A program made the translations under genes and the position numbers. 45,090 nt of DNA, from contig CAZUVN010000002.1 of NCBI GenBank assembly GCA_964623835.1, positions 1 through 45,090 of the forward strand, read 5' to 3'. The notes beneath the pieces were generated by a model. That model was not told the DNA's origin. It searched no databases and saw only the letters and a program-made list of their open reading frames with translations. Below are positions 1,748 through 41,833 of the stretch, one piece after another (position 1 is the stretch's first letter; each line of letters begins with the position of its first letter). This stretch comes from an uncultured Candidatus Peribacteria bacterium (GTDB taxonomy: Bacteria; Patescibacteriota; Gracilibacteria; Peribacterales; Peribacteraceae).

Positions 1748-1756
1748 TGCTATAAT
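1748..1756 (+). promoter_or_regulatory. Extended -10 box (TGCTATAAT) 8 nt upstream of ATG 1765; probable leaderless transcript
   Basis: TGCTATAAT at 1748-1756, then agatcgat, then ATG 1765. An in-frame TAG at 1756-1758 rules out an earlier start. Confidence 0.55.
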
Positions 1757-1764
1757 AGATCGAT

Positions 1765-2091
1765 ATGCTTTCTCTTCTTGCACAAGTCTATAACGGCGGT
1801 GGAATCGAGGATGGAATTGATCAGGCATCGGGTATTACGGGAGTCGCTGACGCCGATCCTCGCGAAGTCGCCATCAGCATCATCGAGGCTGTTCTCAATT
1901 TCCTCGCTTTAATTGCGACGATTATGGTGATTGCCGCGGGCATCTACATGATTGTCAGCTTGGGCAACGACGACAATAAAGAAAAGGCGAAGAAGATCAT
2001 CTATTACACGATCATCGGTCTTGTCGTGGTGCTCTTTGCTCGCGTCATTGTTTCGCTGTTTACCGAATGGCTTCCTTCTCAAGTAGGATGA
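1765..2091 (+). CDS. Small two-TM TrbC/VirB2-like 'T4SS pilin' family protein (CPR/Mollicutes type)
   Basis: 108 aa. The C-terminal half, LALIATIMVIAAGIYMIVSLGNDDNKEKAKKIIYYTIIGLVVVLFA, has the TM / small polar loop with K-A-K-K / TM layout I associate with the PF18895-like pilin family (from memory, not searched). Confidence 0.65.
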   Translation: MLSLLAQVYNGGGIEDGIDQASGITGVADADPREVAISIIEAVLNFLALIATIMVIAAGIYMIVSLGNDDNKEKAKKIIYYTIIGLVVVLFARVIVSLFTEWLPSQVG

Positions 2092-8351: not shown

Positions 8352-8399
8352 AAGCGGAAGTGAGAATGTAAACGGGCAAATGGTAGCAGAAATTATACG

Positions 8400-9582: not shown

Positions 9583-9765
9583 ATAGATTAAGTATTGGAA
9601 TGGATACGTGCCCACATTGTACGCGTTGAATAATTACATTCCCATTGCGGCATATCCACATAGTAGATCACCTCTACTTTAGCAAAGAATAATCGTGCCA
9701 AGCCCCCTTTTCATTTCATACATCTTCTGCTACCGTCAAAGAGAACTGATTTCCGTCTTTTTCTC

Positions 9766-11115: not shown

Positions 11116-11188
11116 ATGATCTTGAAAGTACGGAAAATGAGAGGAGGATGAGAAACGTCCTTCGCTCTTTTCCAAAAGGAGGTGAATC

Positions 11189-12193: not shown

Positions 12194-12221
12194 AAAAAGA
12201 AGGGGAAGTGATTCCCCTTCT
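12194..12221 (-). terminator. Rho-independent terminator after gyrB, abutting the GT2 start codon
   Basis: Minus strand reads AGAAGGGGAA-TCAC-TTCCCCTTCT, then TTTT, followed directly by ATG 12193. Confidence 0.65.
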
Positions 12222-12260
12222 CTGACGAAGCGATGACTTGATCATGACAAAAACTCCGAC

Positions 12261-14309
<2,049 letters not shown>

Positions 14310-14331
14310 TCAGAGGAGAAAATACGGGAGA

Positions 14332-15803: not shown

Positions 15804-15860
15804 AAATTGAGGAGCAAGGAAGTAGGATGTAGAGACTAGGAGAACAGGATTGTACGACTG

Positions 15861-19003: not shown

Positions 19004-19012
19004 ATTATAGCA
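19004..19012 (-). promoter_or_regulatory. Extended -10 (TGCTATAAT) 8 nt upstream of the PrsW-family gene ATG; probable leaderless transcript
   Basis: Minus strand: TGCTATAAT, aatcagat, ATG (18995). Confidence 0.55.
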
Positions 19013-20657: not shown

Positions 20658-21038
20658 TCAGCTTTTGTAAACTGCTTGATTGCGTTTCATGTTTCCAATC
20701 ATCGAATTCAGCATTTTTCCAATTTCCTGAAGAAGATTTTCAACCTTGGTAAAGTCGCAATTTTTTGTATGCGGCAACTCTTTTGCTAGGCACATCTGTG
20801 CCTGAATCTCCATATGAGAAGCATATGCAATGTATAGGAATCTAATAAAATCTTTTTTACTGCCTCTATGTCTACCTTCTGCAATATTCGACAGAACTGA
20901 AATAGATGCTCGTCTCATTTGATCGATCAATCCAAACCGCTCTGTTGAAGGAAAATTTTCAGTCAGTTCATATATAGCAACTGACATTTGTAGAGCGCGT
21001 TGCCAGACAATAAGATCTCGAAAAGATTGTATAGCCAT
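20658..21038 (-). CDS. Four-helix-bundle protein (23S rRNA intervening-sequence protein family)
   Basis: MAIQSFRDLIVWQRALQMSVAIYELTENFPSTERFGLIDQMRRASISVLSNIAEGRHRGSKKDFIRFLYIAYAS is the family signature. Start taken at ATG 21038. Two sampled 60-nt lines give about 42% GC, lower than the neighbouring genes. Confidence 0.85.
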   Translation of the reverse strand: MAIQSFRDLIVWQRALQMSVAIYELTENFPSTERFGLIDQMRRASISVLSNIAEGRHRGSKKDFIRFLYIAYASHMEIQAQMCLAKELPHTKNCDFTKVENLLQEIGKMLNSMIGNMKRNQAVYKS

Positions 21039-21143
21039 AACCTCCACTCTAGAGATATCTATCGATAAATTCCGCTTTAGTGATTTAAAGCGGTGAAGCG
21101 TTTTCGACTTGACTCCTGAAAGCTAAAAGCTAACTCCTAGTTC

Positions 21144-21830: not shown

Positions 21831-21886
21831 TGGAGTGAATCGTACAGGTAGACGGAATTATCGGCTACACAAGAAGTACGTGTAAT

Positions 21887-23186: not shown

Positions 23187-24767
23187 ATGACGTCACGCTC
23201 TTCACGATCGATCATCAGCAAACTCATCGACACCGTGAAGATGAATTACGACGTCGTGTTCTTATTGATACTCGGCATCATCGTTCGCGTGTGGGCATTC
23301 GGTGATATCCCGCCGGGACTGAATCAGGATGAGGCGGCGACCGGATACGATGCATGGTCGGTGCTCCGATATGGCGTTGACCGCAACGGCTTTCCGTTTC
23401 CAGTGATGTTCGTCTCGTGGGGATCGGGCATGTACGCATTGAACGGATATCTTGCATGGCCGTTCATGCTCCTATTTGGCTTAAGCGAAGCATCCATTCG
23501 CATGCCGCATCTCACGCTCGGCATTGTCTCACTGATTCTCTTCTTCCACCTCGTTCAACGAGTCGTCGATCGGCCGACAGCAGTGACTGCTCTTCTGCTG
23601 ATCGCCATTAACCCGTGGCACATCATGATTTCGCGCTGGGGACTCGATTCCAACATTTTCCCGGGCATGTTTCTGATCGCGGTCTTTCTTCTGATCCTCT
23701 CTTTAAAGAATAGCCGCTATCTTCCGTGGTCGGCCTTCGTGCTCGGACTCTGTCTCTATCTATACGGAACTGCCTACGTCGTCATCCCGATCTTTACTGT
23801 TCTCGCTGCAATTGCACTGACGTTCTTCTGGAAAACCCAATGGTCGACTCTTGGCATCTCCGCTGTTGTCGCTGTTGTGACAGGGATCCCAATTGCGCTC
23901 TACATCGCAATCAACCAGTTCCAGTGGAACTCTATTATTCTACCGTTCATAAGCATTCCACGACTCACCGGAACCCCGCGTTTTCAGACAGTCTCGAGTG
24001 TTTTCAGCGGAGACTGGGGCAGCATTATCAACAACCTTCGGGAATTCTGGAAACTACTTTTTTATCAGCATGACGGATTAATCTGGAATGGAATTGAAGG
24101 ATACGGACAGATATATATGATCGGACTGCCTTTTGTGATCATCGGTATCGTTGCTGCGTGTATACGAGTGTGGAAAGCACGCGGAAAAGATCCGGCAATC
24201 TTCCTGCTTTTTTGGCTGATCTCCGCTACCGCACTTGCCGCGTTGCAATCGGTCAACGTCAACCGCATTAACGTGATCTACATCGCATTGATCTTTTTCT
24301 GCGCACTCGGCGTACAGACAGTTGCATGGGGAAATCGATTTGTCCGCGACGGTATTCTCAGCGTTTTTCTGGTTCTCTTTTCCTTCTTTACGTATTCGTA
24401 CTTCACACAATACCGCGCCGAGGCGTCCGATGATTTCTTCACCGGTCTCGGCACGGCAATCACCGATGCATTGGACGCAACCGACGGCAAAGTCTGCGTA
24501 ACCGATCGCGTGAATATGCCATACATTTTCGCGCTCTTTTACGAGCAAACTGATCCCCGATTATTTGCGGAAACCGTTCAGTACGATAATCCCGGAGCGG
24601 AATTTCAGTGGGCAAATCGATTCGGACGATTCACGTTCGGATTGCATCGATGCAGAGATGAATCGTTTGATGCATTCGTCATTCATGTCGATGAACTCGA
24701 TGAATTTGACGATGGACGCTACGATATACATATCTTCGATCACTACGCATCAGCTATTCCTCTCTGA
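23187..24767 (+). CDS. GT-C fold membrane glycosyltransferase (GT39/ArnT-like)
   Basis: Motif DIPPGLNQDEAATGYDAWSVLRYGVDRNGFPFPVMF, followed by many TM segments and a soluble C-terminal domain. Confidence 0.85.
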   Translation: MTSRSSRSIISKLIDTVKMNYDVVFLLILGIIVRVWAFGDIPPGLNQDEAATGYDAWSVLRYGVDRNGFPFPVMFVSWGSGMYALNGYLAWPFMLLFGLSEASIRMPHLTLGIVSLILFFHLVQRVVDRPTAVTALLLIAINPWHIMISRWGLDSNIFPGMFLIAVFLLILSLKNSRYLPWSAFVLGLCLYLYGTAYVVIPIFTVLAAIALTFFWKTQWSTLGISAVVAVVTGIPIALYIAINQFQWNSIILPFISIPRLTGTPRFQTVSSVFSGDWGSIINNLREFWKLLFYQHDGLIWNGIEGYGQIYMIGLPFVIIGIVAACIRVWKARGKDPAIFLLFWLISATALAALQSVNVNRINVIYIALIFFCALGVQTVAWGNRFVRDGILSVFLVLFSFFTYSYFTQYRAEASDDFFTGLGTAITDALDATDGKVCVTDRVNMPYIFALFYEQTDPRLFAETVQYDNPGAEFQWANRFGRFTFGLHRCRDESFDAFVIHVDELDEFDDGRYDIHIFDHYASAIPL

Positions 24768-24775
24768 TTCCGTTT

Positions 24776-28918: not shown

Positions 28919-29115
28919 GCACGCACCACCGAATGCCGATCGCTGCGGTCCTGATCCCGAAGGGATCACTCTGAGCTAGTCGAAGAGTGCCTTCCCCAAC
29001 GGAATATCCTCCGCATTAGGCGAAAAGACGCATTCGGGCAGCCCCCAAGGATTTGATCACTGCCTTCTCTGTTGCACCCACTAAGGGTGTCGATCGCGTC
29101 GATCAACTCTGCTTT

Positions 29116-29138
29116 TACCTCCTAGTTCCTACCTCCTA
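29116..29138 (+). promoter_or_regulatory. Tandem TACCTCCTA elements immediately upstream of the rpsB start
   Basis: TACCTCCTA at 29116-29124 and at 29130-29138. The second copy ends 5 nt before ATG 29144. Confidence 0.4.
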
Positions 29139-29143
29139 TCGTT

Positions 29144-29893: not shown

Positions 29894-29927
29894 GATATTC
29901 TATCCTCGACTTCTCCATCCTAGCTCC

Positions 29928-29936
29928 TACCTCCTA
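29928..29936 (+). promoter_or_regulatory. Third TACCTCCTA element, 6 nt upstream of the tsf start
   Basis: TCCTAGCTCCTACCTCCTA (29918-29936) matches the rpsB-proximal TCCTAGTTCCTACCTCCTA at 18 of 19 positions. Confidence 0.4.
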
Positions 29937-29942
29937 GATATC

Positions 29943-30842: not shown

Positions 30843-32597
30843 TTACCACTTCTGCCACGGCATCTCGATCTGATCGAGAGGAACGTCGTCGATGGAGTCG
30901 GCAATCTTCTCGCCTGCCACTTTCGCAACCAACGAGTGAAGATTCTTCCGGAAGACGAAAGCCATGACCGCTGCAAGTCCGAAGAGTCCGGCCATCACAC
31001 TTACGGTGACAAACGGGAATGACTCGATCATGGTTGCAGGAGCAGCGCGCTTCAGCTCGGTACAGTCCGGACCGCAATCCTCGCCACCGTCACACTCCTC
31101 ACTTTCATCAATCACGCGGTCACCGCAGCGTGCCGCACGACAATCCATACGACAGGAATTTGCTTTGCTGTCGGAATTGTCGCGACCGTTGTCGCACTCT
31201 TCCTTTGAACTGAGCAAGCCGTCGCCGCAGGTCGGAACCTTGCAGAGCGTCGTACAACTGTCGTCATTGTTATCGTTTCCATCGTCGCAGTATTCACCAG
31301 GCTGCAGCAATCCATCGCCACATTTGGGCTTTTTACATTCAACGGAGCACGAGTCATTATCGCTCTGGTTTCCGTCATCACACTCCTCCTGGCCTTCGCG
31401 GACACCGTTGCCACACAGAGGGAGCTTGCACAGGTTATTACAGCCGTCTGTATTTAAGCGATTACCGTCATCACACTCCTCACCGGCAGCAATTTGCAGA
31501 ACGCTATCGCCACAACGGGCCATAATGCACTGGTTCGTACAGGCATCCGTATCAACCTTGTTGGCATCGTCACATTCTTCGCCAAGTTGAACCACACCGT
31601 CGCCGCAGGAAGGCAGCGTACAGGTATTGGTACATCCATCGCTTCCGACAAGATTTCCATCATCGCACTGCTCTCCCAAAGCAATCTGCACGATCTGGTC
31701 GCCGCAGCGCGGGTTCTTACACGCGTTCGTGCAAGAATCATTGTTCATCTGGTTTCCATCGTCACATTCCTCTCCACTCTGAACGCTTCCGTCACCGCAA
31801 GCAGGAGACTTACATGTATTGCTACAGGCATCCGTGTCGATGCGATTGCCGTCGTCACACTGTTCCCAGATAGCGACGAGTCCGTCTCCACACTGAGCGA
31901 TGCGACAGGCATTGGTACAAGCATCTGTATCGACCTTGTTCGCATCATCACACTGTTCACCGGTATCGATCACGCCGTTTCCACAGATGTTCTGCCCTGC
32001 ATTAGTCTGACCTGCAGTTGATGTCGTTTGACCCGAAGCCGTCGCAGCGGCAGACGACTTCGATTGAGATGCCAGTGTCAGCTGTTGCGCTGAGTTGGTG
32101 GATGATGCAGCGCAGGCAGGCAGGAAATTGCGCTTGCAGCCGCCGGAACAGACGCCGTCTTTGTCACACGTCGGAACCGTACAGATCGCACCGCAGGACG
32201 GCGCAAGGTAGCGTGTCTCAATGATTAACTCGCCAGTCGCAGGATCCAATGCATACACTTCTTCAGACTCCGGTTCACATTCTTCTTTGAGGGCCGGAGA
32301 AATAAGTCCGTCACCGCAGAAAAGCTGCACACAGTCTTTGGTGCAGTTACTGAATCCGTTTTTGGTACTTCCCAAATCACATTCCTCTCCCGCATCAACA
32401 ACTCCATTACCACACATCAGTGACCGGCTGCTGCTTGATGCGGCTTTCACCGGACAACCCGATGTCCCGTACGCCTTACCGACACAGTCGGATATGAGAT
32501 CCGCACTAAATGCTCCGCTGGAGAGCGCGACAACCGCCGCCATTGCCGTGAGGCCGAGTACCGACAGGGTTGTATAGGAGGGTGGGTGTTTGTTCAT
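30843..32597 (-). CDS. Secreted, C-terminally TM-anchored protein made of Myxococcus-type cysteine-rich repeats (CGDG...EECDDGN...D.C...C)
   Basis: Signal peptide MNKHPPSYTTLSVLGLTAMAAVVALSSGAFSA. Two N-terminal repeat units and ten tandem ones. TM segment FVTVSVMAGLFGLAAVMAFVF, followed by a 35-aa tail. Confidence 0.85.
   Translation of the reverse strand: MNKHPPSYTTLSVLGLTAMAAVVALSSGAFSADLISDCVGKAYGTSGCPVKAASSSSRSLMCGNGVVDAGEECDLGSTKNGFSNCTKDCVQLFCGDGLISPALKEECEPESEEVYALDPATGELIIETRYLAPSCGAICTVPTCDKDGVCSGGCKRNFLPACAASSTNSAQQLTLASQSKSSAAATASGQTTSTAGQTNAGQNICGNGVIDTGEQCDDANKVDTDACTNACRIAQCGDGLVAIWEQCDDGNRIDTDACSNTCKSPACGDGSVQSGEECDDGNQMNNDSCTNACKNPRCGDQIVQIALGEQCDDGNLVGSDGCTNTCTLPSCGDGVVQLGEECDDANKVDTDACTNQCIMARCGDSVLQIAAGEECDDGNRLNTDGCNNLCKLPLCGNGVREGQEECDDGNQSDNDSCSVECKKPKCGDGLLQPGEYCDDGNDNNDDSCTTLCKVPTCGDGLLSSKEECDNGRDNSDSKANSCRMDCRAARCGDRVIDESEECDGGEDCGPDCTELKRAAPATMIESFPFVTVSVMAGLFGLAAVMAFVFRKNLHSLVAKVAGEKIADSIDDVPLDQIEMPWQKW
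31059..31985 (-). repeat. Coding tandem array of ten ~31-aa Cys-rich units
   Basis: Residues 205-513. Example units: CGDGLVAIWEQCDDGNRIDTDACSNTCKSPA and CGDGSVQSGEECDDGNQMNNDSCTNACKNPR. Confidence 0.85.
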
Positions 32598-32610: not shown

Positions 32611-32619
32611 AGTATAGCA
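32611..32619 (-). promoter_or_regulatory. Extended -10 (TGCTATACT) for the Cys-repeat gene
   Basis: Minus strand: TGCTATACT, then 13 nt, then ATG 32597. Confidence 0.5.
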
Positions 32620-32688: not shown

Positions 32689-32697
32689 TGCTATACT
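32689..32697 (+). promoter_or_regulatory. Extended -10 (TGCTATACT) 7 nt upstream of the response-regulator ATG; leaderless geometry
   Basis: TGCTATACT, aagagca, ATG 32705. Confidence 0.55.
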
Positions 32698-33088: not shown

Positions 33089-33123
33089 TTTCCGCCGAGC
33101 GCGTTTCGCGCTACCCTCCCCGT

Positions 33124-34358: not shown

Positions 34359-34367
34359 TGCTATACT
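34359..34367 (+). promoter_or_regulatory. Extended -10 (TGCTATACT) for the VirD4-like gene
   Basis: TGCTATACT, then 14 nt, then ATG 34382. Confidence 0.5.
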
Positions 34368-34381
34368 GGTACGATAGTTTC

Positions 34382-36850
34382 ATGTCGACCTTCTTGCTTC
34401 TGATCGGCTCGGTTCTCGGCATTGCATGTGCCGTCTATGCCCTTGCCGCATACGCAAGACGGTCTGCCGATCGCACTCGCGAGGAGGATCTCGTGTTCCT
34501 GCAACTGCTGGTACCAAAGAAGGAGTCCCGCGAGGAAAAGGACGCCGATACCGATCAGCTTGGAAAAGATTATAAAGAAGTAATCGGTGTCATGGACCAC
34601 CTGTATCAGTCACTGCACGGACTGTATAACGGCTCGATGAACCGGTACTGGACCGGGCAACCGTTCATCTCGTTGGAATACGCGGCGCTCGCGAATGAGA
34701 TCCTGTTCTTTGTCGTCTGCCCGCGCTCGATTGCCCCACTCATTGAGAAGCAAATCACATCGTTTTATCCGGACACGGTGATTGATGAGGTGGAGGACTA
34801 CAACATCTTCACAAATGATTCCGTTGTTGCAGCCAAAAGCCTTTTTGCCAGCAAGCCGTTCACGGCTGTCTTTAAAACGTACCAGCAATTGAAGAGCGAT
34901 CCTCTCAATGCAATCACGAACGCCTTCTCCAAATTGCAGAGTGATGAAGGCGCAGCAGTGCAAATCATTCTGCAACCGGCAAAACCGGGTTGGCAGAGCA
35001 AGCTTCAGCAGGAAGCAAAAGATCTGCTGAATGGAAAATCCGGTGGAGGATCCTCATGGCTGAATCCACTGACATGGGTGCGCATGATCGTCGATCTGTT
35101 TACATCCGGAGGACCGTCTGCAGATACACCGAAGAGCGAGCGCGTTTCACAAATGGTGGAGGAATACAGCAAGGCTGTTGATGAAAAAGCCGGCAATCCC
35201 GGGTTCACGGCCGTCATCCGCGTCGTGTCATCGGCAAAGAATCCGTCTCGTGCGCAGATGATTCTGGATACCGTTCTGGGCGGTTTCAGTCAGTTCAACG
35301 ATGTCCGCGGCAACGGGTTCAAGACGGTGATGTTCGATTCGAAAGCTAAAACAGTCCGCCGTTTCATCCGCCGTTCTCCGCGTCGCATTCTGCGTGAATG
35401 GCTGCAGGCACCGCTGATGCTCCTCGGCACCACCGAACTGGCATCACTCTTTCATTTGCCGCACACCAAGTACAACAAGGTAGAGACGATCAAATGGCAG
35501 AACTTCAAAGTCGCTCCCGCGCCAAAGAATCTGCCTGAGGATGGATTGTATCTGGGTACCAATACCTATCGCGGTGAGAAGAAAAAGATTTTCATGCATG
35601 ACGAAGACCGCTTCCGTCACTTCTATATCATTGGTCAGACCGGTACCGGTAAGTCGTCCATTATTCAGCTGATGGCGCGGCAGGATCTTCATAATGGAAA
35701 GGGTATGTGCGTGGTCGACCCGCACGGTTCGTTGATTGACGATCTCTTGCCGTACATTCCTCGCGAGCGCGCAGATGATGTGATTTTCTTTAACCCCGCA
35801 GATACCGAGCGTCCGATGGGTCTGAACCTTCTTGAAGGAAAGACCGAAGAAGAGCGCGACCTTATTGCGCTCGATGCGATGAACATGATGGTGAAGATGT
35901 TCGGCGAAGAAATCTTCGGTCCGCGCATTCAGGACTACTTCCGTAACGGCTGTCTTACACTGATGGAAGATGAGGAAGAAGGCGGTGCCATTACCGACCT
36001 TGTCCGCCTCTTCACCGACGACGAATGGCAGAAGTACAAAGTCGCCAAGGTGAAAAACCCGATCGTGAAATCCTTCTGGGAAAACCAGATGGCAAAGACC
36101 GGTCAACGCGAGAAGCAGGAGATGATCCCCTACTTTGCCGCGAAGTTCGGACAGTTCGTCACCAACACGCTGATTCGCAATATCGTCGGCCAGACGAAGA
36201 GCTCGTTCGATGTTGCGGAATGCATGAATAGCAACAAGATCATTTTGATGAACCTATCCAAGGGTCTCATTGGTGATATCAACTCCACGCTGCTCGGTAT
36301 GATTGTGGTGAATAAAATTCAGGTCGCCGCCATGCGTCGTCAGCGAATGGAAAAAGAAGCGCGCAAAGACTTCTTCCTCTACATCGACGAGTTCCAAAAC
36401 TTCGTGACGCCGAGCATCGAATCGATTTTGTCTGAGGCTCGTAAGTACCGCCTCGGCTTGATTCTTGCACACCAGTACATCGATCAGCTGGAAAAAGAGA
36501 GTAAGCTTGCGGGATCTGTAAGCTTGAAAGGCGCGATCTTCGGAAACGTCGGAACGATGATGATGTATAAGATCGGACCACAGGATGCTGAAGTCGCCGT
36601 CAAAGAAATGGCACCGGTCTTCAGCGAACAGGATCTGGTGAACATGGATGCATTTAAGGGCGCCATGAAGCTGTGTGTGAACGGTCAGCCAAGTCGCCCA
36701 TTCAGCATCGAAGTCCCTCGGCCCTGGCTTGAGAAGTCCTACACAAAAGATGAGCAGGCTGCAGAAGCATTCAAGCAGCTGAGTCGATTGAAGTATGGAC
36801 GTCCGAAAGAGTTTGTAAATAGAGAGATCTTGAGACGTATTGGGGCGTAA
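34382..36850 (+). CDS. VirD4/TraD/TraG-like (type IV coupling protein-like) membrane-anchored P-loop ATPase
   Basis: N-terminal TM segment MSTFLLLIGSVLGIACAVYALAAY. Walker A FYIIGQTGTGKSS. DPHGSLIDDL. Walker B FLYIDEFQNF. ARKYRLGLILAHQY. 822 aa. Confidence 0.8.
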   Translation: MSTFLLLIGSVLGIACAVYALAAYARRSADRTREEDLVFLQLLVPKKESREEKDADTDQLGKDYKEVIGVMDHLYQSLHGLYNGSMNRYWTGQPFISLEYAALANEILFFVVCPRSIAPLIEKQITSFYPDTVIDEVEDYNIFTNDSVVAAKSLFASKPFTAVFKTYQQLKSDPLNAITNAFSKLQSDEGAAVQIILQPAKPGWQSKLQQEAKDLLNGKSGGGSSWLNPLTWVRMIVDLFTSGGPSADTPKSERVSQMVEEYSKAVDEKAGNPGFTAVIRVVSSAKNPSRAQMILDTVLGGFSQFNDVRGNGFKTVMFDSKAKTVRRFIRRSPRRILREWLQAPLMLLGTTELASLFHLPHTKYNKVETIKWQNFKVAPAPKNLPEDGLYLGTNTYRGEKKKIFMHDEDRFRHFYIIGQTGTGKSSIIQLMARQDLHNGKGMCVVDPHGSLIDDLLPYIPRERADDVIFFNPADTERPMGLNLLEGKTEEERDLIALDAMNMMVKMFGEEIFGPRIQDYFRNGCLTLMEDEEEGGAITDLVRLFTDDEWQKYKVAKVKNPIVKSFWENQMAKTGQREKQEMIPYFAAKFGQFVTNTLIRNIVGQTKSSFDVAECMNSNKIILMNLSKGLIGDINSTLLGMIVVNKIQVAAMRRQRMEKEARKDFFLYIDEFQNFVTPSIESILSEARKYRLGLILAHQYIDQLEKESKLAGSVSLKGAIFGNVGTMMMYKIGPQDAEVAVKEMAPVFSEQDLVNMDAFKGAMKLCVNGQPSRPFSIEVPRPWLEKSYTKDEQAAEAFKQLSRLKYGRPKEFVNREILRRIGA

Positions 36851-36864
36851 TACTGTTTTTCTCT

Positions 36865-36888
36865 GCCTGAATCACCTGTTGTTCAGGC
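36865..36888 (+). terminator. Weak hairpin after the VirD4-like gene, overlapping the convergent gene's stop codon
   Basis: GCCTGAA-(10 nt)-TTCAGGC followed by TCCTTTC. The stem is only 7 bp. Confidence 0.35.
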
Positions 36889-38328
36889 TCCTTTCAGATA
36901 ATGCTTAGCATATTGATTCTTAATAGGATGCTGATCTGACATTTGCAATATCATTTGCATCTTGTCCTTATGCCCATATTTCCTATCTTGAATTCGCTGT
37001 GATTTTCTTCGAATTGAATTAAGTGTTGTCTCAGTACCGGTTGCTAAAACCGTGCACTCAAGATTTGCTCGTAAAAATTTTGAAATCATCTCGGGACTAT
37101 TTACATCTTCAGTTGAACCAAATTCCATAAAGACACGAGCTAATGTTAGACACTTTGAAATTGAAGTCGTCCAGAGGAATGGCTGATTTTCCATTAACGA
37201 AATTATGTCTAGTGACGATTGTGAAACTACTTTCAGCCTCTTAAACAGGAGAATACGTCGATCAATATTCTCAAAAGTAAGATTAAATATTCCCGGAATA
37301 TCTTCTAGAAGGCCCACGGGACTGCAAAATCCGCGGCATTTTAGTCCATTAATTTTTTCATCAAGATACACAAAAGTATAAGAGGCAATCGCAGGATGTA
37401 CTATAAACATAGACACCGGATCTTTAAAGCCGCGATCTTTTAATCCCTGTATCTTTTTATCAATATTCTCAATAGATAATCCAAAGAATGTCGGCGATTT
37501 TGTTATGAGTTTAACTGGGTCTATAAATCCTCTGCTTGTTAGTTGCTCAATTTTTTCATGAATACTCTCAAGGCTATAGCAAACAAATGTAGGGTGCTGC
37601 GAAAGAAGTTTTATAGGATCTTTAAAGCCACATTTTCTCAATCCATCAATCTTACTCCTTAAAGCGTCAACATCATTCCCGAGAATCGAAGGTTGCTTTA
37701 CTACTAATTTGAGAGGATCAGCAAACCCAATTTCTTTTAATAGAGCCATTTTCTCATAAATAGTTTCGGACGAATAATTGAGTAATGAGGGATGTCTTTT
37801 AATAATATGCGCAGCATTTTGAATGCCAATTTCTCTTAGAGCTGTAATCTTCTTATCGATTGTTTCTAATGATAAAGAAAGGATTGATGGAGCCCTAGCG
37901 ATCAGTTGAATGGGATCCGCAAAGCCACGTTTTTTAAGCCCCTCAATAGTCTCGCTAATATTTTGTAATGATAAACCAAGAACAATTGGATGCATTTCGA
38001 TAATTTTGTGCGGATCCTTAAAACCGCAACTTTGTAAAAATACGACTTTTTGAACCAAATTTTCAGTTGAATATCCGAGAACTGCAGAGAATGATTCGAT
38101 TAATAAATATGGATTTTGAAATCCTAATTCTTGAAGAGTACTGATTGTTTTTTCCAATGATCTTACACGTGTTAGGTTTGGATCAGCTTTTTGCAAAGCA
38201 TCTGCAAATTTTTCAGAGAAACCCCTCTGAATCAAGAATGTGCGTCTAGCTGCAATAATATTTTCAGCGGTTTCGCCGGGAGGGAAAACTGTACCTAAAT
38301 GCCGCTGATATAGAGACCCGTTTTCCAT
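36883..38328 (-). CDS. mTERF-like helical-repeat protein (ten 33-aa repeats plus a ~117-aa basic C-terminal region), encoded in an AT-rich island
   Basis: Start taken at MENGSLYQ (ATG 38328), one nt after the sortase TGA (38332-38330). Repeat consensus [RCI]GF.DP..L....P.IL..S.E.I..KI..L+.. Two sampled 60-nt lines are 33% GC, against 50-58% in the flanking genes. No signal peptide. Confidence 0.8.
   Translation of the reverse strand: MENGSLYQRHLGTVFPPGETAENIIAARRTFLIQRGFSEKFADALQKADPNLTRVRSLEKTISTLQELGFQNPYLLIESFSAVLGYSTENLVQKVVFLQSCGFKDPHKIIEMHPIVLGLSLQNISETIEGLKKRGFADPIQLIARAPSILSLSLETIDKKITALREIGIQNAAHIIKRHPSLLNYSSETIYEKMALLKEIGFADPLKLVVKQPSILGNDVDALRSKIDGLRKCGFKDPIKLLSQHPTFVCYSLESIHEKIEQLTSRGFIDPVKLITKSPTFFGLSIENIDKKIQGLKDRGFKDPVSMFIVHPAIASYTFVYLDEKINGLKCRGFCSPVGLLEDIPGIFNLTFENIDRRILLFKRLKVVSQSSLDIISLMENQPFLWTTSISKCLTLARVFMEFGSTEDVNSPEMISKFLRANLECTVLATGTETTLNSIRRKSQRIQDRKYGHKDKMQMILQMSDQHPIKNQYAKHYLKGA
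37237..38226 (-). repeat. Coding tandem array: ten in-register 33-codon units (990 nt)
   Basis: ORF-track residues 47-376. Example units: RGFADPIQLIARAPSILSLSLETIDKKITALRE, CGFKDPIKLLSQHPTFVCYSLESIHEKIEQLTS and RGFIDPVKLITKSPTFFGLSIENIDKKIQGLKD. Confidence 0.85.
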
Positions 38329-38329
38329 A

Positions 38330-39493
38330 TCATCGCGCCGCCACCTCGCTAACCGGCGCCGCATGAACTAGGTAACGCTGATCGATCGAATCTGGCGGCC
38401 AGCAGGTGTAGAGAATCAACTCTTCACCGCGACCTCCTTGATACGCCGAGAAGTCTTTGTCATCGACTGCGCGTTTGTGCGTGACCTGATACGTGTGAAC
38501 TTTGCCTCCGTATGTGACATAAATTTTATCGCCGATGCTGAGCTTGTTGATCTGGCGGAAGATCTTCGTGTAGTTGGATACATCCCATCCGTAGCTGGAG
38601 CTGTGACCGTAGACGAGAATGGTCCCACCGGCACCGGGATAGCTGAACAAGTGACCCACTCCGTACTTCAGCGGTGCAAGCAATCCATCAGACGTTGTCG
38701 GGTTGGACGGATGTGTGATTGTCAGATCTTTGATTCCGAGCGATGGAAGAGTGATAGCAAAGGCTTTGTTGGAAGCTTGTGGTGCGGTTGTTGTTGAAGT
38801 TGTCGTTGTTGTCGGACGCGCGGGGGTCGGCGTTGCCTGCGCGACGTAGGTTGGGCGTGGCTGTGCTGGACGATTAACTGCAGGTGCCCGGGCTGGCGCT
38901 GGCGCCTGTGCAACAACCGGACGAATGACAACAGGGGCGGGCTTAGGTTGATGGCTGATGGCAATCTGTTCCGGCTTCTCGACACCCGTTGAAGACATCA
39001 TCGCAAACAGGCTCTGTTTGCTGACCGGCATTCCAAGGCGAATGGGCGATGGCAATTGCACTCCTCCTTTTACGGCGGCATTTAGGGCACCGCTGAACCA
39101 ATCTCCGTCCGTGGTATTCAGATCACTCAGTGTATCGGGGCGCTTGCGAGCATTAGTGCGGGCAATCAGCACAATCGCCTCTTCTTCGGCCAACACATCA
39201 CCAGGGCGGAACCGTCTGTCGGCATTTCCCGTAATAATTCCCGCCTCAAAAGCCGTCTCAATATACGGTGCGTACCACTGGTCGTAGTCGAGATCGTCGA
39301 ACAGCGGCATCGGCGGTGGATTCTTGATGTAGTGCTGCAAACGCTGCTTTAAGACGGAATCCGATTCAACAATCATCGCGACGGCTCCGGCGCGGGAAAT
39401 CGGCTCATTGGACGGTAATTCTGCGGCGAATGCCTGGGTCATAAACCCGACCAGCAGAACAAGCACGGTGAGGAGGATGAACCGCTTTTCCAT
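38330..39493 (-). CDS. Sortase-family transpeptidase with an N-terminal SLH-like module and a Pro/Thr-rich linker
   Basis: Signal/TM segment MEKRFILLTVLVLLVGFMTQAFA. SLH-like FDDLDYDQWYAPYIETAFEAGIITGNADRRFRPGDVLAEEEAIVLIAR. Sortase catalytic triad context ILVYGHSS, LILYTCWP and QRYLVHA. Confidence 0.85.
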   Translation of the reverse strand: MEKRFILLTVLVLLVGFMTQAFAAELPSNEPISRAGAVAMIVESDSVLKQRLQHYIKNPPPMPLFDDLDYDQWYAPYIETAFEAGIITGNADRRFRPGDVLAEEEAIVLIARTNARKRPDTLSDLNTTDGDWFSGALNAAVKGGVQLPSPIRLGMPVSKQSLFAMMSSTGVEKPEQIAISHQPKPAPVVIRPVVAQAPAPARAPAVNRPAQPRPTYVAQATPTPARPTTTTTSTTTAPQASNKAFAITLPSLGIKDLTITHPSNPTTSDGLLAPLKYGVGHLFSYPGAGGTILVYGHSSSYGWDVSNYTKIFRQINKLSIGDKIYVTYGGKVHTYQVTHKRAVDDKDFSAYQGGRGEELILYTCWPPDSIDQRYLVHAAPVSEVAAR

Positions 39494-39560
39494 AGAATGG
39501 GAGATTAGGGTATCATAATTAGTGATTTTGTCAATAAATGCACCGAGAATGCATCCAATA

Positions 39561-41757: not shown

Positions 41758-41833
41758 AAAACTAGACAGTAAATACCAATACTGATGTATACTATCTGAC
41801 TGGTATTGTTTTATCACCTTCTACTCTCCATCT

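Follow-up and report, generated by a model that had tools for sequence, protein, structure and literature searches.

How do ribosomes find start codons in bacteria whose genes show no enrichment of Shine-Dalgarno (SD) sequences? The question is raised by a 45,090-nucleotide (nt) stretch of a Candidatus Peribacteria contig (CAZUVN010000002.1, positions 1-45,090, assembly GCA_964623835.1), which is called the window below. Its baeRF-family gene (minus strand, ATG 15803) follows an S41 peptidase gene after a 57-nt gap in which UCCUA, UUCCUU and CUCCUC units are repeated; positions 15804-15829 of the minus strand read CATCCTACTTCCTTGCTCCTCAATTT, and the gap ends in ...tctcctagtctctacatcctacttccttgctcctcaattt followed by the ATG. 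An earlier sequence-only reading of the window proposed that leadered genes carry such C/U-rich tracts in place of purine-rich SD sequences. On balance, we favour the view that the C/U tract is a functional leader for SD-independent initiation, and we describe it together with a class of leaderless genes.

The window is part of a Candidate Phyla Radiation (CPR; Patescibacteria) genome of the class Peribacteria, an assignment that rests on its relatives. A search with the rpsB protein yielded 80 loci (L001-L080, 1.24 Mb in total), and all of these derive from Candidatus Peribacteria or Peregrinibacteria metagenome-assembled genomes at 66-96% identity.

C/U-rich leaders and the absence of a Shine-Dalgarno system

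All 12 upstream tracts named in the sequence-only reading are present, in gene orientation, directly 5' of their start codons. They are located as follows.

15804-15848, minus strand: C/U leader of the baeRF-family gene, before ATG 15803; predicted fold -1.8 kcal/mol
29113-29143, plus strand: rpsB leader TTTTACCTCCTAGTTCCTACCTCCTATCGTT, with UACCUCCU at -14 to -7; orthologous leaders are G-poor in 80 species
29910-29942, plus strand: tsf leader CTTCTCCATCCTAGCTCCTACCTCCTAGATATC, in the 49-nt gap within the rpsB-tsf operon
21831-21841, minus strand: tract GATTCACTCCA before ATG 21830 of a family 2 glycosyltransferase (GT2) gene; orthologues are often C/U-rich
33111-33123, plus strand: tract CTACCCTCCCCGT before ATG 33124 of a PLD-like gene, directly 3' of a GAGCGCG/CGCGCU hairpin
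41817-41833, plus strand: tract CCTTCTACTCTCCATCT before ATG 41834 of a hypothetical open reading frame (ORF); start uncertain, no Pfam match
39494-39534, minus strand: upstream region of the sortase gene (ATG 39493), a promoter-like pair of TTGACA, 16 nt and TACCCT, then AATCTCCCATTCT
8352-8399, minus strand: upstream region of the DUF3160 lipoprotein gene (ATG 8351), with a -10-like box CGTATAAT at 8392-8399 and a G-poor leader of about 35 nt ending in CTCACTTCCGCTT
12194-12222, minus strand: GAGAAGGGGAAUCACUUCCCCUUCUUUUU before ATG 12193 of a GT2 gene, a terminator-like hairpin after gyrB
2071-2080, plus strand: CTTCCTTCTC before ATG 2088 of a PKD protein gene, inside the overlapping ORF of a type IV secretion system (T4SS) pilin; ATG 2067 is an alternative start
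9750-9765, plus strand: hisS leader TTTCCGTCTTTTTCTC; the gene has a tRNA-synt_His match
24757-24771, plus strand: tract TTCCTCTCTGATTCC before ATG 24776 of a GT-C glycosyltransferase gene; orthologues are C/U-rich

With all 1680 ATG trinucleotides in the window serving as the control for its 35 start codons, the words CTCC, TTCC or CCTC occur in the last 20 nt before 17 of the 35 starts versus 16.4% of ATGs (binomial p 1e-5). A 10-nt window with at least nine pyrimidines is found in the same interval for 12 of the 35, versus 6.0% (p 4.5e-7), and for 10 of 33 genes when rpsB and tsf are left out, versus 6%. No more than one G per 20 nt is seen before seven of the 35 starts and 1.8% of ATGs, whereas the purine words GGAG, GGAA or GAGG precede only four of the 35 starts against 19.6% expected. 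The claim that leadered genes carry C/U tracts stands for about a third of the window's genes, and fails as a rule for all leadered genes. The leaders also fold weakly: the region from -25 to +15 has a mean predicted energy of -3.6 kcal/mol for the 12 leaders versus -6.8 for random ATG sites, and a 60-nt rpsB region is predicted to be wholly unfolded (0.0 kcal/mol). The GT2 tract before 21830 is a weak case, with only seven pyrimidines in its best 10-nt window, and the tract before 24776 lies within the final codons of the preceding GT-C gene, the gap between the two genes being 8 nt.

Conservation is most evident for rpsB and tsf, where the 45 nt 5' of each gene are pyrimidine-rich and nearly G-free in almost all 80 species. 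In a positional profile of 98 orthologous rpsB/tsf leaders, whose starts were fixed by protein alignment, the frequency of G over the last 30 nt is 0.07 (rpsB) or 0.04 (tsf), and at -16 to -7 it is no higher than 0.02. These leaders share a positioned core, U-Y-C-C-C-C-Y (UUCCCC), in which T reaches 0.65 at -14 and C reaches 0.53-0.66 at -12 to -8, with A depleted to 0.12-0.15 at the latter positions. The core lies at about SD distance, and the rpsB/tsf signal is thus SD-like in position, a point that the sequence-only reading overlooked. The window's clade has UACCUCCUA in the place of the core, and the window and its nearest relatives (L001 and L002) carry UACCUCCU(A) exactly there. The UUCCCC core recurs at -14 to -9 before unrelated genes on an independent set of 64 metagenome loci (L081-L144), which were pulled by scanning contigs for the Peribacteria 16S tail. 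C/U-rich upstream regions of differing sequence are likewise seen among orthologues of the window's GT2 and GT-C genes and in two further families. Over species that are 66-96% identical, composition is kept while sequence changes, and G is missing on the sense strand only.

The leaders of rpsB, a highly expressed gene, are often tandem arrays of short G-free units, the unit varying by species and the composition being kept; in the window's clade the core often sits within such units of 6-8 nt. Examples include telomere-like (CCCTAA)n-like arrays (L055:1666-1710, L057:9956-10000, L068 and L079), (CAATTTAA)n (L061:9956-10000), (TTTGTACC)n (L039 and L053) and UCCUAC units with a 7-nt period (L001:7722-7766). 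The CCAAGGATTT element is conserved as well, at 29040-29056 of the window and at the corresponding place in L014, L026, L058 and L064. Its distance to rpsB downstream is 60-100 nt in the window and 20-30 nt in the other species, and it may belong to a leader through which S2 regulates its own synthesis. Neither this element nor the window leaders matched an Rfam family, and a scan of the gap before rpsB with the sigma-70 consensus found no promoter.

That initiation in this lineage does not depend on SD pairing, as had been suggested, is borne out by the 1.24 Mb of relatives, in which SD words are unenriched, by a mutated 16S rRNA tail and by two published surveys. SD 5-mers in -22 to -1 of 863 genes occur at expectation (GGAGG is seen 21 times against 21.9 expected), GGAG, GAGG and AGGA have no positional peak anywhere between -30 and -4 in the related genomes, and SD words at -16 to -5 are found in 7-9% of genes. 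The 16S 3' tail of the lineage is CACUUCCUUA, in which the anti-SD is mutated from CCUCC to CUUCC. No 16S gene was found in the window or in L001-L080, and the tail was read elsewhere: the 64 Peribacteria-type 16S genes of L081-L144 read CACTTCCTT without a CCUCC core, a pattern that was itself a requirement of the search. The tail is shared by contigs of the window's own sample, where none of the aligned tail contigs carries a CACCTCC variant.

Published evidence agrees, in that Peribacter riflensis and two other Peribacteria have the tail GAACACTTCCTTA and no SD (PMC6107228, PMC10783764). P. riflensis is listed as SD-scarce (7% of genes) and without CCUCC, and GWF2_33_10 has a different Peregrinibacteria tail, GAACATTCCCTTA (PMC10783764). 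The Tompa method of Amin et al. (2018) returned TACACT for P. riflensis, which looks like a -10 box, and GAAGAA for GWC2_54_8 (PMC6107228). The SD-less state of Peribacteria is therefore already published, and these two reports give no replacement motif, no C/U core and no 9-nt extension of the 16S tail. A literature search for a C/U-rich start motif in an SD-scarce lineage found none; the positioned C/U core, the two-route picture and the conserved 16S extension presented herein appear to be new descriptions.

The three SD-like exceptions named in the sequence-only reading are all present, and only the first of those below is at a working distance.

11176-11182, plus strand: AAGGAGG, 6 nt before GTG 11189 of a gene without Pfam support
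14301-14309, minus strand: SD-like AAAGGAGGT, 16 nt before gyrB ATG 14285

The third belongs to a gene previously called foreign (20658-21047, minus strand) that codes for a 23S rRNA intervening-sequence protein (four-helix bundle, PF05635) and stands alone between glycosyltransferase genes, its GGAGG being 2 nt from the ATG. Upstream of gyrB (14301-14330, minus strand), UUCUCCUCUGAAA precedes AAAGGAGGT, and a small CUCCU/AGGAG hairpin, a pairing read from the letters, could mask both.

Leaderless starts as a companion class

The most enriched upstream 5-mers in the 863 genes come from TGCTATA(A/C)T, an extended -10 promoter box, and the spacing from TGnTAnnnT to the ATG peaks at 6-8 nt. A -10 box at this distance means that transcription starts on the start codon or right beside it. 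With a loose definition of the box, this leaderless class comprises 24-36% of genes versus 1.6-3% of controls. Leaderless starts are the largest recognisable gene class, a point that was overlooked when only the C/U tracts were noted. Because start positions in the related loci were called automatically and crudely, which dilutes the signal, the class fractions are lower bounds and are given as ranges. Start calling by alignment column took conserved internal Met codons in several families, and calling by codon-usage likelihood was noisy on short regions. A subset of genes with a nearby in-frame stop was discarded as a clean set, being biased against pyrimidine runs and towards TATAAT boxes.

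Boxes and tracts coincide in only 2-3% of genes, and box-bearing genes have fewer tracts than decoys (4.8% versus 7.0%). This mutual avoidance fits two alternative initiation routes. As a rule the leaderless box is absent from the tract-bearing genes of the window and is found before other genes, those starting at 1765, 18995 and 32705. Boxes in the window include the following.

1748-1756, plus strand: extended -10 box TGCTATAAT, 8 nt before ATG 1765; leaderless
19004-19012, minus strand: box TGCTATAAT, 8 nt before ATG 18995; leaderless
32689-32697, plus strand: box TGCTATACT, 7 nt before ATG 32705; leaderless
32611-32619, minus strand: box TGCTATACT, 13 nt before ATG 32597; purine/A-rich leader of about 6 nt
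34359-34367, plus strand: box TGCTATACT, 14 nt before ATG 34382; very short leader of about 6-7 nt

The purine/A-rich leader at 32597 is conserved in 51 orthologues. Both a T4SS pilin (TrbC/VirB2-like, 1765-2091, plus strand) and a TraG/VirD4-like protein (34382-36850, plus strand) have TGCTATAMT boxes directly upstream, and therefore the type IV secretion genes of the window use a leaderless or near-leaderless route.

What the C/U tract may do

We propose that gene starts in Peribacteria could be reached by two routes. The leaderless route would use an extended -10 box (TGnTAnnnT) ending 6-8 nt before the ATG. On the leadered route, which lacks an SD, the last 20-30 nt are G-depleted and C/U-rich and barely fold; the tract would keep the start region single-stranded and may be a pyrimidine-rich place for the 30S platform to bind, with ribosomal protein S1 as the most plausible contact. 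We infer that the tract promotes initiation. It is a probable translation signal because it is anchored to the start codon, strand-specific and conserved in composition rather than in sequence. A promoter element is less favoured because the tsf tract lies between two genes of an operon and because enrichment before genes with gaps of just 10-40 nt equals that before the others, and a role in translation is further indicated by the mutual exclusion of tract and leaderless promoter and by the weak folding of the leaders. The exclusion of G is the simplest means to keep a leader of 50% G+C unpaired. Given that A is also depleted, and that avoidance of G would not by itself raise C so far, the preference for pyrimidines is a real one.

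That S1 reads the tract is suggested by analogy. In Escherichia coli, S1 binds pyrimidine-rich single strands upstream of start sites (PMC3296737), and CPR bacteria keep bS1, mostly with three to four domains, Peregrinibacteria often being without bS21 (Tsurumaki et al. 2022, PMC9297842). By composition and predicted fold, the Peribacteria leaders have a single-stranded, pyrimidine-rich upstream segment like that of S1-dependent leaders. The rpsA gene is not in the 45-kb window, and the remaining genome was not searched for S1.

Several observations weigh against a general initiation signal, or against S1 as its reader. When rpsB and tsf homologues are removed, a 10-nt window with at least nine pyrimidines precedes 14.9% of 740 genes, compared with 8.1% of all ATGs and 12.3% of post-stop sites, and the positional peaks come down to some two to three times background. 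Neither a -10 box nor a tract is seen in roughly half of the genes. Among the 12 window tracts, the one before 12193 is formed by the 3' strand and U-tail of a 12-base-pair (bp) terminator-like hairpin (-18.4 kcal/mol), and the starts at 2088 and 41834 are uncertain, a coding-potential method having favoured GTG 41879 for the latter. The sharp positioning in rpsB and tsf fits better with base pairing or a fixed protein site than with loose S1 binding. Nor is the short S1 of Gram-positive bacteria, with three to four domains, known to drive SD-independent initiation. The C/U tract is hence a subset signal, strongest in translation genes and found outside rpsB/tsf in about 15-20% of genes versus 8-12% of controls; in the independent loci L081-L144, tracts occur in 20% of genes and boxes in 22%.

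Could the tracts be a by-product without any role in initiation, made up of terminator arms and U-tails, stretches between a -10 box and the start, strand bias and slippage-prone repeats? The hairpin before 12193 is such a case, and the sortase-family tract, which lies mostly between the -10 box and the ATG of a very short leader, is another (TTGACA and the -10 box are conserved in 31 sortase orthologues). Post-stop sites are also somewhat pyrimidine-rich, the genome-wide enrichment is modest, and tandem repeats, (CCCTAA)n among them, make up many rpsB leaders. However, a by-product would not readily account for the start-anchored profile of the 98 orthologous leaders, for the lack of G on the sense strand alone, for composition that is kept while sequence shifts or for a tract between rpsB and tsf. 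Purine-rich windows are not enriched (8.7% versus 11.8% in decoys), and tracts are scarcer in -10-box genes than in decoys, so that we judge this explanation improbable. Even less probable, in our estimation, is a gene-specific operator. The rpsB and tsf leaders would then be bound by a protein that regulates its own synthesis, S2 for example, and the remaining ten window cases would be weak or due to chance. In E. coli, S2 is an established autoregulator of rpsB-tsf; in Peribacteria these two genes supply most of the positional signal, and the CCAAGGATTT element is conserved upstream of rpsB in many species. Yet the E. coli regulation acts at the rpsB leader whereas tsf here has a tract of its own, the positioned UUCCCC core stands before unrelated genes in L081-L144, pyrimidine windows are in excess among the 33 window genes beyond rpsB and tsf, and the window leaders have no Rfam match. 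Finally, start codons might have been misplaced, with the true starts lying elsewhere behind an ordinary GGAGG. The starts at 2088 and 41834 and the crude automatic calls in the related loci give this some room, but Pfam alignments begin at residues 1-11 in baeRF, rpsB, GT2 (21830), hisS and ychF (baeRF_family7 from residue 3, Ribosomal_S2 from residue 9, tRNA-synt_His from residue 11) and fix those starts, and the N-termini of rpsB and tsf can be aligned over 80 species. With SD words unenriched at every position from -30 to -4 and the anti-SD itself mutated, misplacement is effectively refuted.

A further explanation arises from the rRNA. The sequence-only reading had named a diverged SD/anti-SD pair as the less likely alternative, and for the classical 13-nt tail this can be set aside: upstream regions hold fewer words that could pair with CACUUCCUUA than gene bodies do (AAGGA 25 versus 47), and the tail cannot pair with the leaders because it is itself pyrimidine-rich. 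The idea survives in a changed form through the 9 nt that follow ...CTTCCTT, which are ACCAGGGAA in 63 of 64 contigs and ACAAGGGAA in one, the spacer beyond diverging freely. Two examples are given here.

L111, 2364-2372: ACCAGGGAA, 3' of ...CACTTCCTT
L093, 4151-4159, minus strand: ACCAGGGAA, 3' of ...CACTTCCTT

The Rfam bacterial SSU model ends in ...CCTTA. Over the last 400 nt of 16S and the first 40 nt beyond, 40 unique sequences are 79-100% identical; among them conservation is complete through GGGAA and collapses within the next few columns. AGGGAA can fold onto the tail's UUCCUU (6 bp, -3.7 kcal/mol). For CCAGGG, the more frequent predicted partner lies a few bases further on, a pyrimidine strand of variable sequence (UCUCUGG, UCUUUGGU, CCUGG or CCCUG); five or more of the six CCAGGG bases are predicted to pair in 82% of flanks versus 32% of shuffles. 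If the mature 16S were extended by 8-9 nt to ...CACUUCCUUACCAGGGAA, AGGGAA(U) could pair with (A)UUCCCU-type cores about 9-14 nt before the AUG, which would be an SD interaction of swapped polarity, with pyrimidines in the mRNA and purines in the rRNA. Before maturation, or in an idle subunit, AGGGAA would be masked by the UCUCUGG-type strand or by the UUCCUU of the old anti-SD.

We regard this pairing as a tentative and rather unlikely proposal. The near-invariance of the 9-mer and the halt of conservation after GGGAA, as would be expected at a mature rRNA boundary, speak for it, as does the complementarity of the rpsB/tsf core, U(-14) Y C C C, to GGGAA; mature 16S 3' ends are known to vary in length between species (PMC6288834). 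In duplex energy with the 98 rpsB/tsf leaders, the real AGGGAA order ranks second of 20 permutations, and the full 10-mer is beaten by two of 150 shuffles, both of which keep GGGAA. Upstream enrichment is confined to words that would pair with AGGGAAU (TTCCCT 21 versus 3 in gene bodies); those complementary to ACC/CCAGG or to the tail are not enriched, save for promoter-derived TGGTA-type words. However, C/U hexamers are all about equally enriched, with TTCCCT 11th of 64, and the commonest core has four or five C where the rRNA offers just GGG. The CCUCCUA of the window's clade pairs poorly with AGGGAA, and the 12 window leaders rank the real order 8th of 20. No covariation is seen: the UAGGAG that covariation with CCUCCUA would predict was not found, contigs of the window's sample showing only ACCAGGGA, and the window organism probably has this standard extension (in run X22 its depth is 16-22x, and the 16S-tail contig with ACCAGGGA has depth 21). 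The predicted pairing of CCAGGG in most flanks also suggests that the 9-mer may be an arm of a processing or terminator hairpin. CUCCUAC could also pair with GUAGGAG in helix 45, a candidate that was set aside because the latter strand lies within a conserved stem.

Other peculiarities of these rRNA genes were noted. In the one exact Peribacteria match among metatranscriptome contigs, from groundwater (X1/X2, L093:4015-4167), the tail and 145 nt of spacer are unbroken, with adapter at A4167; at a thin depth of 3.5, the contig is precursor RNA or DNA carry-over. The window itself is contained in no RNA run. Helix 45 of the L081-L144 16S (GTATCCGTAGGAGAACCTGCGGATGG) has the loop AGAA in place of the usual bacterial GGAA, a change that we take to be G1516 to A in E. 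coli numbering, and its closing pair is changed in compensation (A/U to U/A; GGAUCA to GGAACA). Several 16S genes (L103, about 2045 nt; L114, L115, L140 and L142, about 1683; L131, about 1656; L143, about 1602) exceed the usual 1465-1475 nt by 130-580 nt, in keeping with the known occurrence of insertions and introns in rRNA genes of the CPR. No 23S rRNA or tRNA was found within 4-9 kb downstream of 16S in L096, L100, L103 and L111, and the rRNA genes appear unlinked.

Known systems and other features of the window

SD-independent initiation on pyrimidine leaders, the reading we favour, is closest to the SD-blind initiation of Bacteroidia such as Flavobacterium johnsoniae, where the SD is likewise unused and starts are guided by composition and low structure (PMC9976891); many Flavobacteriia have also lost CCUCC (PMC10783764). 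The signal differs, in that Bacteroidia favour A at -3, -6, -12 and -13 (PMC9976891) whereas in Peribacteria C/U is dominant and A is depleted, the rpsB/tsf leaders having A at 0.28, 0.29, 0.12 and 0.21, respectively. The Bacteroidia anti-SD is intact and hidden in a bS21/bS18/bS6 pocket (PMC9976891), whereas that of Peribacteria is mutated and bS21 is frequently absent in Peregrinibacteria (PMC9297842). Leaderless starts, moreover, are prominent in Peribacteria, unlike in the Bacteroidia system.

S1-dependent leaders of E. coli and of cyanobacterial and chloroplast mRNAs share a single-stranded, pyrimidine-rich stretch as the 30S landing site (PMC3296737). The E. coli S1 site accompanies an SD and is U/A-rich and loosely positioned, whereas Peribacteria have no SD and a C-rich core, which in rpsB and tsf is fixed at -14 to -8. 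Mutsuda and Sugiura (2006) reportedly worked on cyanobacterial rbcL with S1. Leaderless initiation, as in Actinobacteria, Deinococcus and archaea, is shared by a quarter to a third of Peribacteria genes as a companion mode; the tract genes differ from it in having no adjacent -10 box and, at one site, an intercistronic position. With the published class that is SD-scarce and lacks CCUCC (Amin et al. 2018; Estrada et al. 2024), Peribacteria share the tail GAACACTTCCTTA and the absence of an SD. They do not resemble the variant SD/anti-SD pairs of class iii of Estrada et al., given that the enriched upstream words are themselves pyrimidine-rich.

Outside Bacteroidia it is an open question how start codons are found without SD pairing, and a large, uncultured share of bacterial diversity belongs to the CPR. 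Gene-calling models based on the SD will misplace starts in such CPR genomes, for which two start models could be used, one with a -10 box next to the start and one with a G-free C/U core at -14 to -8. The rpsB and tsf leaders are clean natural test substrates, and the invariant 9 nt raise the question of whether the Peribacteria 16S is longer, with a purine end that reads the leaders.

The 45-kb window holds about 35-37 genes, including rpsB-tsf, hisS, proS, gyrB, ychF, a sortase gene, the baeRF-family gene, a class II-like ribonucleotide reductase gene, a series of GT-C/PMT and GT2 glycosyltransferase genes, the T4SS pilin gene and that of a VirD4-like coupling ATPase. An Rfam scan of the window found one tRNA-His and nothing else. 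Adjoining the VirD4-like gene, positions 36883-38364 on the minus strand code for a 493-amino-acid protein with repeats of the mTERF family (Pfam PF02536, 1e-29), which is typical of organelles. This region is the only low-G+C stretch of the window (42% versus about 51%) and, given its composition and the T4SS ATPase gene next door, is probably acquired DNA.

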